From: Desulfuromonadales bacterium
Lineage (GTDB): Bacteria > Desulfobacterota > Desulfuromonadia > Desulfuromonadales > BM103
Assembly: GCA_030145195.1 (NCBI GenBank)
Contig: JAQYVY010000002.1
Coordinates: 57,285 to 121,284 of the forward strand
Length of the DNA stretch: 64,000 nt
Direction of reading: 5' to 3'
Shown: positions 36,853-42,521 of the stretch, in pieces
How positions within the stretch are numbered: the stretch's first letter is position 1
How the letters are laid out: each line of letters begins with the position of its first letter
The notes under the pieces: generated by a model
Told to the model about the DNA's origin: nothing
The model's database searches: none
The model's input: only the letters and a program-made list of their open reading frames with translations
Translations under genes and position numbers: made by a program

Positions 36853-37713
36853 TCATAAGTCTATTTCCGCCAGGCGACTGGCCAGGGTCGCCAGGGCCGC
36901 GGCGGCGGGGGAGTCACCGCGATCGACCACCGGCTCGCCGCGCCGGGCACAGGCACCAACCTCTGGATCGTAGGGGATCTTGGCCAACAGCGGCACTCGC
37001 CGTCGCATACATTCGTCGCTGACCTGCGCGGCAAAGGCCGGGGCCAGATCTGCCTTGTTGATGCAGGCATAGGCGGAGATGCCGAAATGAGCAGCCAAAT
37101 CGAGAAGTCGACACAGGTCGTGCAGACCAGAGGCGCTCGGTTCAGCGACCGCCAACAGGGCATCGTTACCAGCCAACGCCGCCATCGTCGGGCAACCCGT
37201 TCCGGGGGGACCATCACAGAGGAGCCAGCGCACCTGTTGCTCCTTCGCGAGTCGGGTGGCCTCTTCCTTGAGGAGGCTGACCAGCTTTCCAGAATTGCCA
37301 GCACCGGGGAGGAGCCGAGCTCCTAGCACAGTGCCACAGTCTGCCGTGCCAACTGACCAATAACCACCCACATGATCGATCATCTGTAACGCCTGCTCGG
37401 GGCAGGCCAGGGCGCAGAGGCCGCAGCCTTCGCAGGAGAGAGAACGCACGGTCCCTGCGGCAATAGCGTGAAACCGGCACAGTGCTGTGCATCTGCCGCA
37501 ACCACTGCAGCGGGTCTCGTCACAATAGGCCATCCGGCCGCCGACAAAGGGAACCTCAGGGCCGAACGTCGGTTGCAACACCAGGTGCAGGTTGGCGGCA
37601 TCGACATCGGTATCCACACACAGCACCTCTCCCCGCCAGTGGGTCGCCAGCGCAGCGGAGACGGTGGTTTTGCCGGTTCCCCCCTTACCGCTCAATACGA
37701 CGAGTTTCGTCAT
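36853..37713 (-). CDS. MinD/ParA-type P-loop ATPase with inserted 2x[4Fe-4S] ferredoxin motifs (paralogue B)
   Basis: Deviant Walker A SGKGGTGKTT, CSGCGRCTALC and CEGCGLCALACP, and DGPPGTGC. Its ATG overlaps the stop of paralogue A (ATGA). Confidence 0.85.
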   Translation of the reverse strand: MTKLVVLSGKGGTGKTTVSAALATHWRGEVLCVDTDVDAANLHLVLQPTFGPEVPFVGGRMAYCDETRCSGCGRCTALCRFHAIAAGTVRSLSCEGCGLCALACPEQALQMIDHVGGYWSVGTADCGTVLGARLLPGAGNSGKLVSLLKEEATRLAKEQQVRWLLCDGPPGTGCPTMAALAGNDALLAVAEPSASGLHDLCRLLDLAAHFGISAYACINKADLAPAFAAQVSDECMRRRVPLLAKIPYDPEVGACARRGEPVVDRGDSPAAAALATLASRLAEIDL

Positions 37714-38573
37714 GGCGTCTTCCCACCGGCCTCATGGGACTGCAACATCTCCCAGAGCCGAACCAGTTGCGCCCCCCAGGCCGGGTCGATCCTGTTCAGC
37801 GGTACCGCCTCCGCTCCGCGCTCGGCCAACTGCCGATCAAAGGGGATCTCCAACAACACCGGAACACCCCGCGCCCGACACAGAGCCCTGATACCAGAGT
37901 CCTCGTCGTTTGCCTTATTAATGACCACCGCCGCCGGAACCTCCAGGGTGTCAAGGACATCAAGGACGGCAGTCAAGTCGTGCAGACCAAATAGGGTCGG
38001 TTCAGTCACCACTAGCGCGGCATCGGCACCGTCGGCCGCCGCGATCAAAGCACAAGAGGTTCCCGGCGGGCCGTCAATAATCACCGGCGTATCTGCCTGC
38101 GTAGCCTCAAGCACCGCCTCGATCACCGGCACGGAGCGGGGCTCGCCAACCGTCAACTCCCCCCAGATCAGTTCCACGCCAGCGACCGTCCCCTTTTGCA
38201 ACCGGCCGACGGATCGCGGCACCTCCATCAGGGCCTGCTGGGGGCAGGCATAGAGGCAGGCCCCACAGGAATGGCAATGCTCGGCAAAAATCTCCAGGTG
38301 GTCTCCGAAGAGCGCCAGGGCACCAAAGTCGCAGGCACGCTTGCACGCTCCGCACGCTGTGCAGTCCTTCGGGTCCCAGACCGGTACCAACACCGATATC
38401 TCCCTTTTGACAAGAGTGCCTAGCTGCAGGTAAAGGTGCGCGTTCGGCTCCTCCACATCGCAGTCGAGTAAAGTCACAGCGGTGCCTTGCGCTTCGGCCA
38501 AGGCGCACGCAAGTCCAACGCTGAGGGTCGTCTTGCCCGTTCCTCCCTTGCCACTAACAACGCAGAGTTTCAC
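37710..38573 (-). CDS. MinD/ParA-type P-loop ATPase with inserted 2x[4Fe-4S] ferredoxin motifs (paralogue A)
   Basis: SGKGGTGKTT, CTACGACKRAC, CHSCGACLYACP and DGPPGTSC. GTG 38573 (VKLCVVSGKGG, 10 nt after the upstream stop) is preferred over track start 38624, which overlaps the upstream gene. Confidence 0.8.
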   Translation of the reverse strand: MKLCVVSGKGGTGKTTLSVGLACALAEAQGTAVTLLDCDVEEPNAHLYLQLGTLVKREISVLVPVWDPKDCTACGACKRACDFGALALFGDHLEIFAEHCHSCGACLYACPQQALMEVPRSVGRLQKGTVAGVELIWGELTVGEPRSVPVIEAVLEATQADTPVIIDGPPGTSCALIAAADGADAALVVTEPTLFGLHDLTAVLDVLDTLEVPAAVVINKANDEDSGIRALCRARGVPVLLEIPFDRQLAERGAEAVPLNRIDPAWGAQLVRLWEMLQSHEAGGKTP

Positions 38574-38583
38574 GATATTCGAC

Positions 38584-38967
38584 CTAACCGTGGGAGTGAG
38601 CGCCGCAGACATCCCCATCGACAATGGGACGGACCTGGCAGGTCTGATACGCCGCGATCACCTCGGCGACGGTCTCTCCCGGGCCGACCAGCACGTCGAT
38701 TCCAGCTTGGGCGAACCCCATCCGAGGCCGCATGCCGATTCCGGCCACCACCAGCGCCGTCGCCCCGGCCTGGGAGAGAATCTGCACCGGCACCAGGCAC
38801 CCACCTTCCGAGTGTTCGACATTGGGCACGGATAACACTGAATCGATCTCGCCGTTCTTCATCGACACCAAGGTGAAAATATCGCAGCGCCCAAAATGCC
38901 CCGAACGCCCGGCATCCATACCGCCAGGATGATTCGAAGGGATTGCTATGACCTGTACATTTGACAT
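38584..38967 (-). CDS. NifX/NifB-C-terminal-like (dinitrogenase FeMo-cofactor-binding fold) protein 3
   Basis: 127 aa. VIAIPSN.., HFGRCDIFTLV and ALVVAGIGMRPRMGFAQAGIDV are typical of the fold. C-terminal CGAHSHG. Confidence 0.8.
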   Translation of the reverse strand: MSNVQVIAIPSNHPGGMDAGRSGHFGRCDIFTLVSMKNGEIDSVLSVPNVEHSEGGCLVPVQILSQAGATALVVAGIGMRPRMGFAQAGIDVLVGPGETVAEVIAAYQTCQVRPIVDGDVCGAHSHG

Positions 38968-39004
38968 GATTTTTCTCCTTTTGAGCGCTAATGGTTATGT
39001 TGTA

Positions 39005-39364
39005 TCAAGGGGCTCCGACAGCCATGTCGGCACTCGCTTCGGTCAAGCCTCCTGCGCAAAAAATCTGTAAAGCCTCCTGCACTGTCCCCTTGGCTCCGTG
39101 CATCACCCTGACCCCCGCCGCATCCAGCGCCCGGAAAGCCTTGGGGCCGGTAACACCGGTAATCAGGACTGTGGCTTGGTGATCGGAAACGAGCTGGGCC
39201 GCCTGGATGCCCGCTCCCTGCATCGCGTTGCGGGCGACAGAGTTTTCCAGGGCCTCCCAGCTGTCGTCAACCTCGTCGTAAATGAGTATCCAGTACGCCC
39301 TGCCAAACCGCTCATCGACGCTGCTCTCCGGTGTCTCGCCCTGCGATGTAACGGCAATTTTCAT
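39005..39364 (-). CDS. NifX/NifB-C-terminal-like protein 2
   Basis: MKIAVTSQG.., RFGRAYWILIY and VLITGVTGPKAFRALDAAGVRV. ATG 39364 overlaps the stop of the upstream gene (ATGA). Confidence 0.8.
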   Translation of the reverse strand: MKIAVTSQGETPESSVDERFGRAYWILIYDEVDDSWEALENSVARNAMQGAGIQAAQLVSDHQATVLITGVTGPKAFRALDAAGVRVMHGAKGTVQEALQIFCAGGLTEASADMAVGAP

Positions 39365-39780
39365 GATGATTCTCCCTCGCCATCCCGAGGCAAACAGCCC
39401 CAACTCCTCCGCCGGGGTCCGCATTCGGTATGGCCGACAAAAGCGTTAACGTCCTGGAGCCACCGGCAGAGGACCTCTTCTACCTCTCCCCGGAAGCCCC
39501 ACACCACCTCGATCCCTTCGTCACCCAAGGCGACCTGAAACCGGGGGTGAATCCCCCCGCAGAGGACCGTGCAAACACCCTCGTCGTGCAGCCAGCGCAC
39601 GAGTTGGGGCTCCTCGACACGATCCCAGATACGCCGTTGCAGACCGCTCACGCTCCGACCGGCCAAACCGACCTCGGCGAAGACAAATTCCCGCGCCTGG
39701 CCGAAACGGGGCAAGACCCGACTGCCATAACAGGGAACAGCGATCAGCACATCAGCTGTGGTCGGTGAGTTCGTGCTCAT
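39361..39780 (-). CDS. NifX/NifB-C-terminal-like protein 1 with Cys/His/Arg-rich tail
   Basis: VLIAVPCYGSRVLPRFGQAREFVFAEV and TVLCGGIHPRFQVALGDEGIEVV. Tail HTECGPRRRSWGCLPRD. ATG 39780 is preferred over 39828. Confidence 0.7.
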   Translation of the reverse strand: MSTNSPTTADVLIAVPCYGSRVLPRFGQAREFVFAEVGLAGRSVSGLQRRIWDRVEEPQLVRWLHDEGVCTVLCGGIHPRFQVALGDEGIEVVWGFRGEVEEVLCRWLQDVNAFVGHTECGPRRRSWGCLPRDGEGESS

Positions 39781-39793
39781 ATCCCTGAGTACT

Positions 39794-39808
39794 CCAAGGA
39801 CCGTGCCG
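39794..39808 (-). promoter_or_regulatory. Imperfect sigma-54 -24/-12-like element
   Basis: Minus strand reads CGGCACG-GTCC-TTGG against consensus TGGCACG-N4-TTGC. It lies about 105 bp downstream of the 22-bp palindrome. However, the -12 has GG instead of GC, and it overlaps the likely SD of the first gene. Confidence 0.25.
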
Positions 39809-39902
39809 AAAGCTACAGTCAGCAACAAATAGATAAAAACTGCGTAATTTTAGCAAGATAGACTGGAGAGGAAGGAGAGTAGATCAAAAAGGAGGGGCTT
39901 GC

Positions 39903-39924
39903 TACTGTTGCAGATGCAACAGTA
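39903..39924. promoter_or_regulatory. Perfect 22-bp palindrome, candidate activator binding site (UAS)
   Basis: TACTGTTGCA-GA-TGCAACAGTA, perfect 10-2-10 dyad. The inner 16 bp fit TGT-N10-ACA. Confidence 0.55.
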
Positions 39925-39970
39925 AGTTTTGCGGAACAATGAAAATATATATTAGGTTTCAGTCAGTTAG

Positions 39971-40030
39971 AGACAATGCAAAGACTCGCGCATCCGTTGC
40001 AGACAATGCAACACCTGCAACGGATGCAAC
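39971..40030. promoter_or_regulatory. Array of TGCAAC/GTTGCA half-sites with nested inverted and direct repeats
   Basis: GTTGCA at 39996; TGCAAC at 40007, 40016 and 40025; TGCAAA at 39977. 12-bp inverted repeat GCATCCGTTGCA (39990-40001) / TGCAACGGATGC (40016-40027). 11-nt direct repeat AGACAATGCAA at 39971 and 40001, exactly 30 bp apart. Confidence 0.55.
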
Positions 40031-40123
40031 ATAGACAAGACAACAACAGCCGCCTAAAATCCAAAAGTTTTCCGCTTTTTACACGATAAATTCAATCTGT
40101 GCGTATTCCGTCCATCCCCGCCG

Positions 40124-41155
40124 TTACCATCCCATAAGAATGCCCACCAGCCCAACCACCACCCCCACGATGAAGTTGATCCCCTTGACCCGGAAAAAAT
40201 CCAGCCGCGACTCGGCGAGGAGTGGCAGCATGCCGTGACCATCCTGAACGATGGAACTGGCGAGGAGGACGCTGAAGGGGACGACCCCCTGGGCGTAGAG
40301 GGTGAGAAAGACCAGGTGCGGCCCAGACTCAGGGACCAGCCCAACGACGCAGGCCAACACCACCAGCAGCAGGGGATTGTCGGCGATCCAGTCGCCCAGG
40401 TTCAGGTAGGTCAACAGCACGTGCATTAGCAGGATGGCGCCGAAGGTCCAGAGAAAGATCTTCGGCACGTGGACCCGGGCCACATGCTGCCACAGATGTT
40501 CTTTGAGAAAGTGATCGGGAACGGTGGCGACGATGAACAACCCCACGGATGTCGTCAGCAACAAGGTCACCCGGAGCCAACTCCACTCGGCTGGTCCGAG
40601 GCGTCCCGCGCCCAAGCCCAAGGCAAAGAGGCTCAACACCAGCATCAGTACGGCTCGGGCCAATGAGCAGTGTCGCCATTGCTCGAGAATCATGCCGCGG
40701 GGGAAACAGTTGCACGTCTCCTGCTCGTGGTAGAGCATGCCCCCCCCTTCCATCTCGCAGCCACCCCGGCCCGGCCCGGCGAGTAGATCGGTTAGCACCC
40801 CCGCCAGCAGACCGATGACCAGCAGCAACAGAAAGACCCACAGCGCCGTTTCGGGAATCATCGACAGCATGACAAAGGCTTCGTCACCGCTGGTGGCGAC
40901 CATGGCGGCGACGACCGCCCCCAGTGACACCACCCGGTGGGAATAAAGGGAGACAACCGCGAAGGCCCCGAGGCAGCCGGGAGTGACACCGAGGAGTACC
41001 GCAAGCAAATACTGCTGCCAGCGGCTGCCGCTCAGCCCCCGTTGCCAGACCCCCTGGGTGAGGACGTTGAGGTATTCGATGACCAGCATCATCCCGAAGA
41101 CGAAGCCGGTGATCATCAGGGCGTGGGCCAGACTGTCGAGAAGGGTATCGATCAT
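40124..41155 (-). CDS. 10-TM membrane protein, tentatively ArsP_2/DUF2899-like putative metal(loid) permease
   Basis: 343 aa with about 10 hydrophobic segments. The N-terminus MIDTLLDSLAHALMITGFVFGMMLVIEYLNV resembles my memory of that family. Central loop GGCEMEGGGMLYHEQETCNCFPRG. Confidence 0.5.
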   Translation of the reverse strand: MIDTLLDSLAHALMITGFVFGMMLVIEYLNVLTQGVWQRGLSGSRWQQYLLAVLLGVTPGCLGAFAVVSLYSHRVVSLGAVVAAMVATSGDEAFVMLSMIPETALWVFLLLLVIGLLAGVLTDLLAGPGRGGCEMEGGGMLYHEQETCNCFPRGMILEQWRHCSLARAVLMLVLSLFALGLGAGRLGPAEWSWLRVTLLLTTSVGLFIVATVPDHFLKEHLWQHVARVHVPKIFLWTFGAILLMHVLLTYLNLGDWIADNPLLLVVLACVVGLVPESGPHLVFLTLYAQGVVPFSVLLASSIVQDGHGMLPLLAESRLDFFRVKGINFIVGVVVGLVGILMGW

Positions 41156-41183: not shown

Positions 41184-42521
41184 TTACTCGGTCTGCTGGA
41201 GCTTCAGCCAGCGCCAGAGGGTGGTGCGGTTCACCCCCAACTCCTGAGCAGCGAGGGTGCGGTTACCGCCATGGCGACGCAGCATCTGCTGCAGATGCTC
41301 GGCGGCAGGAACCGTCCCGCTCGGCACCAGCGACGGTAAGGCCGCCCGTATTTGGGGGAAGAGTTCAGCAGGCAGTATATCGCTTTTTGAAAGGATCACA
41401 GCCCGCTCGACGATATTGAGAAGCTCCCGTACATTCCCCAAATAGGGTTGGTCGAGGAGCAGGCTCAGGGCTTCGGCAGAAAAACCGCGGATCTTCTTGC
41501 CGTAGCTGCGGTTGAAGCGGTCGATGGCCATGTCGAGAAGGAGGGGGATGTCTTCGGGGCGTTCGCGCAAGGGGGGAATCTTCAGGTTAACGACGTTGAT
41601 ACGAAAAAACAAGTCGCGGCGAAAGGTCCCTTCGTCGACCATCACCTCCAGATCCCTGTGGGTGGCGGCAAGAAAGCGAACGTTAGCGGTCCGCGAACGC
41701 TTGGCGCCTAAGGGCTGATATTCGCGGTTTTCGAGGACCCGCAGCAGCTTGACCTGTAGCGACAGGGGGAGATCGCCGATTTCATCGAGAAACAGGGTCC
41801 CATTTTCCGCCTGTTCCAGTCGGCCGGGACGATCTTCAACTGCCCCCGTATAGGCCCCCTTTTTGGCACCAAAGATCTCCGACTCAAGGAGGGGTTCGGG
41901 AAGCGCGCCGCAATTCACCACCACCAGCGGTCCCTTGCGCTTCGGGCTGAGATCGTGCAAAGCCTGGGCGAAGAGTTCCTTGCCGGTGCCGCTCTCCCCC
42001 TGTAGCAGCACCGTGGCCCCACTCGCCGCCACATCGGGAAGAACGTCGAACAATCGGCGCATAGCGGGATGACGGCTGATCAGATCGTGAAAAGTGTATT
42101 TCCCCTCGACTTCACGCTTCAGTGCCTGCAGTTGGGATAAATCACGAAAGGTCTCGACCCCGCCGACAGCCCGCCCGGCTCCATCCCGCAGCACCGAGGC
42201 GCTTACCGAGATCGGAACCTCGCGGTTGTTTTTGTCCAGGATATCAACCTCACGATTGCCCACGTTTTTGCCGCTGGCCATCGCCTCGCGCACCGGGCAG
42301 CCGGTGAAACAGATACTGCTACGAAAGATCTCGCAGCAGCTTTGCCCCAACGCTTCGTCCCGGTTGAAGCCAGTGATCTCCTCGGCGGCCCGGTTGAACC
42401 AGGTGATCCGCATCTCGGCATCGACGGTGAAGACGCCATCGGCGACACTGTCGAGGATGGTCGAAAGATGAGACTGTTGGTCAAGGGGAGGACTTTGCAT
42501 AGACCAAAAGATACCATGCAC
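41184..42521 (-). CDS. Sigma-54-dependent transcriptional activator (PAS, AAA+, Fis-type HTH)
   Basis: PAS (ILDSVADGVFTVDAEMRITWFNRAAEEITG), Walker A GESGTGKELFA, sigma-54 contact loop GAKKGAYTGA (GAFTGA variant), ELFPRI-type region, and C-terminal HTH LAAQELGVNRTTLWRWLK. The start is either GTG 42521 or ATG 42500. Confidence 0.9.
   Translation of the reverse strand: MHGIFWSMQSPPLDQQSHLSTILDSVADGVFTVDAEMRITWFNRAAEEITGFNRDEALGQSCCEIFRSSICFTGCPVREAMASGKNVGNREVDILDKNNREVPISVSASVLRDGAGRAVGGVETFRDLSQLQALKREVEGKYTFHDLISRHPAMRRLFDVLPDVAASGATVLLQGESGTGKELFAQALHDLSPKRKGPLVVVNCGALPEPLLESEIFGAKKGAYTGAVEDRPGRLEQAENGTLFLDEIGDLPLSLQVKLLRVLENREYQPLGAKRSRTANVRFLAATHRDLEVMVDEGTFRRDLFFRINVVNLKIPPLRERPEDIPLLLDMAIDRFNRSYGKKIRGFSAEALSLLLDQPYLGNVRELLNIVERAVILSKSDILPAELFPQIRAALPSLVPSGTVPAAEHLQQMLRRHGGNRTLAAQELGVNRTTLWRWLKLQQTE

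Follow-up and report, generated by a model that had tools for sequence, protein, structure and literature searches.

The stretch of DNA analysed here, called the window throughout, is 64,000 nucleotides long and carries an orp-like ("orange protein") gene cluster on its minus strand. Read along that strand, the order is an activator gene, an ArsP_2 gene, a 343-bp spacer, three NifX-like genes and two ATPase genes. The activator gene (41184–42521, minus strand) encodes an OrpR-like protein with PAS, Sigma54_activat AAA+ and HTH_8 domains (Pfam). Between it and the predicted enhancer described below lies the ArsP_2 gene (40124–41155, minus strand), which encodes an arsenic-efflux-like membrane protein with ten transmembrane (TM) segments.

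The operon itself opens with the first NifX-like (Nitro_FeMo-Co) gene (39361–39780, minus strand; ATG at 39780–39778). The remainder (36853–39364, minus strand) comprises the second and third NifX-like genes (39005–39364 and 38584–38967) and two genes for MinD/ParA-type ATPases, each with a 4Fe-4S ferredoxin insert (37710–38624 and 36853–37713). A first-pass annotation had placed a cluster of TGCAAC/GTTGCA boxes upstream of this orp-like operon; since the operon and the activator gene are both on the minus strand, "upstream" is correct in the minus-strand sense.

Half-sites in the spacer

Reading both strands of the spacer gives GTTGCA starting at 39907 and 39996, and TGCAAC starting at 39915, 40007, 40016 and 40025. 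The interval 39907–40030 thus holds six exact half-sites and one degenerate one, TGCAAA at 39977–39982. The first-pass annotation had every half-site coordinate right and gave a total of seven; six are exact and the seventh is the degenerate copy. The latter sits inside an 11-nt direct repeat, AGACAATGCAA, whose copies (39971–39981 and 40001–40011) are 30 bp apart and were recovered by the repeat finder just as annotated. In the aligned loci of relatives, the spacers have no equivalent of TGCAAA at that position, and this half-site looks window-specific.

The exact half-sites form two groups. The predicted proximal enhancer dyad (39903–39924) is a perfect 22-bp palindrome of 10-2-10 form, TACTGTTGCA-GA-TGCAACAGTA, which the repeat finder returned as the annotation had described it. 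Its conserved core, GTTGCA-N2-TGCAAC, occupies 39907–39920 and starts at -113 relative to the -24 GG of the promoter element described below. The predicted distal enhancer array (39996–40030) contains four exact half-sites, at -223 to -189 from the same GG, and reads GTTGCA-tcc-GTTGCA-ggt-GTTGCA-ttgtc-TGCAAC on the minus strand. It includes a GTTGCA-N5-TGCAAC dyad and a perfect inverted repeat, 39990–40002 / 40015–40027; this nested repeat had been reported as 12 nt long and is present, with a length of 13 nt.

Clustering of this kind is far from what the genome's composition would produce. The 3.4-Mb assembly contains 2275 half-sites in total, or 0.67 per kb, which corresponds to a chance expectation of 0.083 per 124 bp (the earlier estimate had been 0.06) against six exact sites observed. 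Under a Poisson model, about 7e-5 clusters of six such sites are expected over the entire genome, and the spacer is the densest 130-bp interval for half-sites in the whole 3.4 Mb. The runner-up, four sites at C66:20984–21079, lies within a coding region and has no dyads; it was dropped as a target.

The dyads are rarer still. In a whole-genome scan, GTTGCR-N2-YGCAAC, GTTGCA-N5-TGCAAC and TGTTGCA-N1-3-TGCAACA were each found solely in this spacer. The annotation had proposed a genome search for two dyad forms and had held that the motif was missing from the other spacers of the locus; the search extends that statement, as the dyads are unique genome-wide. It had also raised the possibility of a common genome-wide repeat, and the motif is not a dispersed repeat. 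Over the full 64-kb window, GTTGCA has 51 matches against 44 expected; the window as a whole is not enriched, so the signal is purely local.

Related loci and the shared candidate promoter

When the second NifX-like protein was used to query 40 relatives, orthologous loci (43–68% identity) turned up in seven further families of the order, and only weak matches in two other genomes of the window's own family. None of the 24 other genomes of that family has more than a weak match to the orp-like locus, and the distribution is patchy, suggesting loss or transfer. A second scan, with one genome per species, returned 80 loci, the closest being from Desulfuromonadaceae, Desulfuromonas and Trichloromonas MAGs.

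The hexamer cluster is present in every Desulfuromonadales locus with enough upstream sequence. Nineteen non-redundant Desulfuromonadales spacers were right-aligned on their shared -24/-12 element, giving the comparison of orthologous spacers that the annotation had suggested, and the same half-site recurs in all of them. In 19/19 loci the proximal dyad, GTTGC(A/G)-N1-2-(T/C/A)GCAAC, begins between -110 and -116, counted from the leading G of the -24 GG; its spacing is N2, except in three loci with N1. Upstream of it, at about -160 to -300, a distal array of two to six further half-sites is likewise found in 19/19. The spacers are otherwise essentially unalignable (45–57% identical in global alignment). 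In an unbiased count the top 6-mer was GTTGCA/TGCAAC, with 103 occurrences spread over 19/19 spacers; the best unrelated 6-mer occurred 26 times, and equal lengths of adjacent coding DNA held GTTGCA/TGCAAC seven times. The aligned half-sites give the logo YGTTGCA.

The distal array is more variable in layout than the proximal dyad. Direct repeats of 9-bp period are its most frequent arrangement, and overlapping GTTGCAAC and N5 dyads also occur. Orientation and spacing differ by genome (FFFR in the window, FRFR in loci L023 and L026), so what is conserved is a DNA word and not a pairing pattern. The related loci L023, L026 and L027 have an N1-spaced proximal dyad, GTTGCAcTGCAAC, and distal arrays in which an everted ATGCAAC-N3-GTTGCAT occurs. 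In the Deferrisomatales locus L021, GTTGCA-c-CGCAAC stands at -90 from TGGCACG-N4-TTGCT. In the locus scan the boxes were absent from loci of Desulfobacterales, Syntrophales and other groups.

The element used for the alignment is a predicted sigma-54-type promoter, cGGCACG-gtcc-TTGGa (39793–39808, minus strand), conserved in the 19 loci. The -24 GG lies at 39807–39806 and is correctly spaced from the -12 element (cGGCACG-N4-TTGG, 39808–39794), and the genome encodes an rpoN product (Sigma54_DBD match, 217 bits). In place of the canonical GC at -13/-12, the window has the dinucleotide GG. Of the 19 loci (among L003–L009 and L015–L079), 15 have G at -12, four have A and none has C; the preceding T-G is kept. 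The genome's other best sigma-54 candidates have the canonical TTGCT, as does the Deferrisomatales orthologue.

The start codon is unusually close to this element. In the window, the ATG of the first NifX-like gene begins 13 nt after the -12 dinucleotide, and an in-frame ATG stands 13–14 nt after it in 14/19 loci; a leaderless or near-leaderless sigma-54 transcript is accordingly what this geometry predicts, and the transcript may be of that type. Because the -12 C is missing and the ATG is only 13 nt away, it is conservation that argues for promoter activity, and the element is treated here as a candidate promoter. The first NifX-like protein has an N-terminal extension of 9–12 residues that is kept in frame, and some loci have an AGGA-like box positioned upstream of the predicted transcription start.

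Midway between the dyad and the promoter lies an AT-rich block, taaaattacgcagtttttat (39833–39852, minus strand; 80% A+T), at about -45 from the -24 GG. A 20-mer of 75–95% A+T is present at -33 to -62 in 19/19 loci. The block is a candidate bending or IHF-type site. A scan with the Escherichia coli IHF consensus between dyad and promoter gave, at best, matches with one mismatch, in 7/19 loci. Given this weak match, the claim made here extends to an AT-rich block and not to an IHF site.

The adjacent activator and the probable function of the boxes

Most loci with a long enough upstream stretch encode there, in matching orientation, an orthologue of the activator (54–84% identical), which is either directly adjacent or set off by an ArsP_2 gene. 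No activator gene was found within ~4 kb upstream in L023 and L026, or within ~0.3 kb in L027. The ArsP_2 gene separates the activator gene from the predicted enhancer in the window, L016 and L019; in L018 it is also upstream of the enhancer, with the activator outside the stretch covered. L015, whose activator is the closest (84% identical), lacks it, as do several other families (L004, L005, L008, L009). In loci without it, the distal boxes start directly after the activator's stop codon.

The activator belongs with the OrpR family in its domain architecture, its sigma-54 contact loop (GAYTGA, of GAFTGA type), its cysteine and acidic residues and its adjacency to orp genes. Its PAS signature is C62-x-E64-x6-C71-x3-C75, which, on comparison with published residue positions, has the spacing of OrpR from Desulfovibrio vulgaris Hildenborough (DvH). 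The C-x-E-x6-C-x3-C signature occurs in all orp-linked activators examined. In OrpR homologues, C52, D/E54, C61 and C65 (DvH numbering) are reported to be conserved, and mutants without the three cysteines lost the redox gating that the [4Fe-4S] PAS domain provides (PMC8359166). NCBIfam has no OrpR-specific model, and the activator falls under every equivalog cut-off there.

The recognition helix of the window's activator reads NRTTLWRWLK. In box-bearing loci, every activator ends in G(V/I)(N/D/E)R(T/S)TLWR(W/R)(L/M)K, whereas the OrpR-like activators of box-free loci, from other orders, carry H..TL(W/F)RK.K. Within the window's own genome, the box-type helix is unique to this activator among 19 EBP homologues. 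These data suggest that the boxes are the sites of this activator; the assignment draws on covariation and adjacency, as the operator known for OrpR, GGGCGYRTTTTGCGCCC, does not occur here.

Taken together, the boxes are very probably the upstream activating sequence (enhancer) of the minus-strand orp-like operon, serving an OrpR-type activator. They lie at -113 (proximal dyad) and -189 to -223 (distal array) from the -24 GG, inside the roughly 80–250 bp typical of such enhancers upstream of a -24/-12 promoter, consist of conserved repeats and dyads, and track the adjacent activator. The first-pass annotation had likewise proposed a multi-site enhancer for the neighbouring PAS sigma-54 activator, a proposal that footprinting across the 19 loci, genome uniqueness, activator adjacency and helix covariation all support.

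In the proposed mechanism, the OrpR-type activator, encoded 1.2 kb upstream, would use its C-terminal Fis-type helix-turn-helix to bind YGTTGCA half-sites, with one dimer on the proximal dyad, whose centre is ~106 bp upstream of the -24 GG, and further subunits on the distal four to five half-sites, ~90 bp further upstream. The bound subunits would then assemble into an active AAA+ ring. DNA looping, probably aided by the AT-rich block, would bring this ring to the sigma-54 RNA polymerase at cGGCACG-N4-TTGG, and ATP hydrolysis by the ring would open the promoter. By analogy with Desulfovibrio OrpR, the [4Fe-4S] cluster of the PAS domain might permit activation only at low redox potential. Physical binding and ring assembly on split sites are predicted steps in this scheme; looping, any IHF involvement and redox control are carried over from DvH and may apply here by analogy.

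For the Desulfuromonadales orp promoter, a specialised sigma-54 design is possible, though doubtful. It would combine a -12 element lacking C, a leaderless or nearly leaderless transcript and a ring built on a strict proximal dyad together with a flexible array of direct half-sites of 9-bp period; the window's six boxes would then provide one per subunit.

Other readings of the boxes have to be weighed. They might be the operator of an unlinked factor, for example a Fur/Zur-type metal regulator, that represses or modulates the operon or the ArsP_2 gene. The predicted Desulfovibrio Zur site, ATGCAAC-N3-GTTGCAT, uses the same two hexamers, TGCAAC and GTTGCA (PMC545781). L023 and L026 have exactly this everted form in their distal arrays, and in the window a putative metal-efflux gene adjoins the array. 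In the relative G033, moreover, a single dyad identical to the window's, GTTGCAGATGCAAC (L096:2980–2993; G033:C2:343179), lies in an operator-like position ahead of a flavodiiron-like gene, with a TATAAT-like box on one side and the ribosome-binding site on the other. However, the Zur half-sites are everted and N3-spaced and form a Fur-family repressor site at znuABC promoters (PMC545781), and TGCAAC-N3-GTTGCA occurs nowhere in the window or its genome. An operator of the Desulfovibrio Zur type is expected to overlap a sigma-70 promoter, and a global metal regulator should have several targets, but the dyad is unique in the genome. Finally, with or without an ArsP_2 gene, the sites keep their fixed distance of -110 to -116 from a -24/-12 promoter, and presence of the motif follows the recognition helix of the activator. 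A Fur/Zur-type operator is therefore considered unlikely.

The inverted repeats could instead act in RNA, forming hairpins at which read-through from the activator/ArsP_2 transcript is terminated or attenuated. Folding of the minus-strand RNA of 39890–40060 does give two strong hairpins (-53.4 kcal/mol; z = -4.1 relative to shuffled sequences), but any palindrome folds well and no U-run comes after either of them. Most distal boxes in relatives are direct repeats, which cannot pair; the hexamer words are conserved and the complementarity is not. The changing orientation and spacing of the distal boxes (direct FFF(R) against FRFR) fits a protein reading DNA boxes and not a conserved RNA fold. 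On these comparative grounds the hairpin reading, very improbable as it now stands, was dropped.

The palindrome could also be a NifA-type enhancer (TGT-N10-ACA) tying the NifX-like genes to nitrogen-fixation control; its core in the window, TGTTGCAGATGCAACA, formally fits that pattern, as the annotation had remarked. Both the outer T and the outer A are kept in only 7/19 orthologous dyads, however, the conserved part being the inner GTTGCA word, and the best protein in the genome scores 399 bits against the TIGR01817 cut-off of 528.85, leaving no NifA above it. The NifA reading is thus largely refuted and hardly credible; the fit to TGT-N10-ACA is incidental. A functionless chance cluster or repeat-element artefact, which the lack of GTTGCA enrichment over the 64 kb might favour, has next to no probability in view of the local density, the non-dispersed motif and a position conserved in 19 loci of several families, and is refuted by the comparative data.

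Known systems and the breadth of the regulon

For the enhancer reading, two known systems offer comparisons. NtrC-type enhancers, for example at glnAp2, nucleate an AAA+ ring on multiple dimer sites. The locus described here resembles them in having several dyad or half-site elements 100–250 bp upstream of a sigma-54 promoter, and, as predicted for the present case, in being bound by a C-terminal Fis-type HTH whose protein oligomerises over the sites. It differs in its recognition word, in a PAS Fe-S domain where NtrC-type activators have a phosphorylated receiver, and in distal sites that are largely direct repeats of 9-bp period.

In DvH, OrpR (DVU2106) uses upstream activating sequences at the orp1 and orp2 operons, and its operator is the 17-bp palindrome given above (PMC3897727; PMC8359166). 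In both systems, orp genes of the NifX-like and MinD/Mrp-like kinds have beside them the gene for a PAS/AAA+/Fis-HTH sigma-54 activator that bears the C-x-(D/E)-x6-C-x3-C signature. Both have a palindromic site ~90–130 bp upstream of a -24/-12 promoter and a regulon apparently confined to the local orp genes. In contrast to the single palindrome per promoter in DvH, the six to seven half-sites of the present spacer form a split array, and the YGTTGCA boxes are unrelated to the DvH operator. There is one co-directional operon here and there are two divergent ones in DvH; the loop is GAYTGA here and GAFTDA there. Further differences from DvH are a -12 element without C, a start codon that nearly abuts the predicted transcription start, and the lack of a box over the activator's own promoter.

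The OrpR/sigma-54/orp system is thus a known one, whereas the recognition word was not found described in the literature searched. On GTTGCA/TGCAAC with EBPs or Geobacter, that literature yielded solely the Desulfovibrio Zur prediction and primer sequences. Only the Desulfovibrio site has been known so far for the OrpR family. The present analysis offers a testable recognition word for OrpR-type redox-sensing activators of Desulfuromonadales: YGTTGCA, with the core GTTGCR-N2-TGCAAC. The change of helix between …RTTLWRWLK and …H..TLWRK.K could represent a natural specificity-swap pair. The analysis also flags an unusual sigma-54 promoter variant, while the general understanding of sigma-54 enhancers is unchanged.

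The breadth of the regulon was assessed in seven relatives, where extra GTTGCR-N2-YGCAAC matches number one to four per genome and reversed-pattern controls zero to two. Four of the extra dyads were inspected; three lie inside ORFs, the fourth is the lone site of G033, and these four give no evidence of a wider regulon. The G033 site could be a chance occurrence or another factor's operator; the NifX-linked activator of that genome has the other type of recognition helix. The single-locus pattern supports the view of OrpR regulons as strictly local.

The DvH-type operator pattern was absent from all Desulfuromonadales loci scanned. Its sole occurrence among the scanned loci is in an orp-like locus of the Desulfobulbaceae (L085:5845–5861), where GGGCGTATTCTGCGCCC is near-identical to the DvH site established by experiment, so the DvH operator type reaches beyond Desulfovibrionales. 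Its absence in the one order and near-copy in the other lineage indicate a shared regulator family whose operator has changed between lineages.
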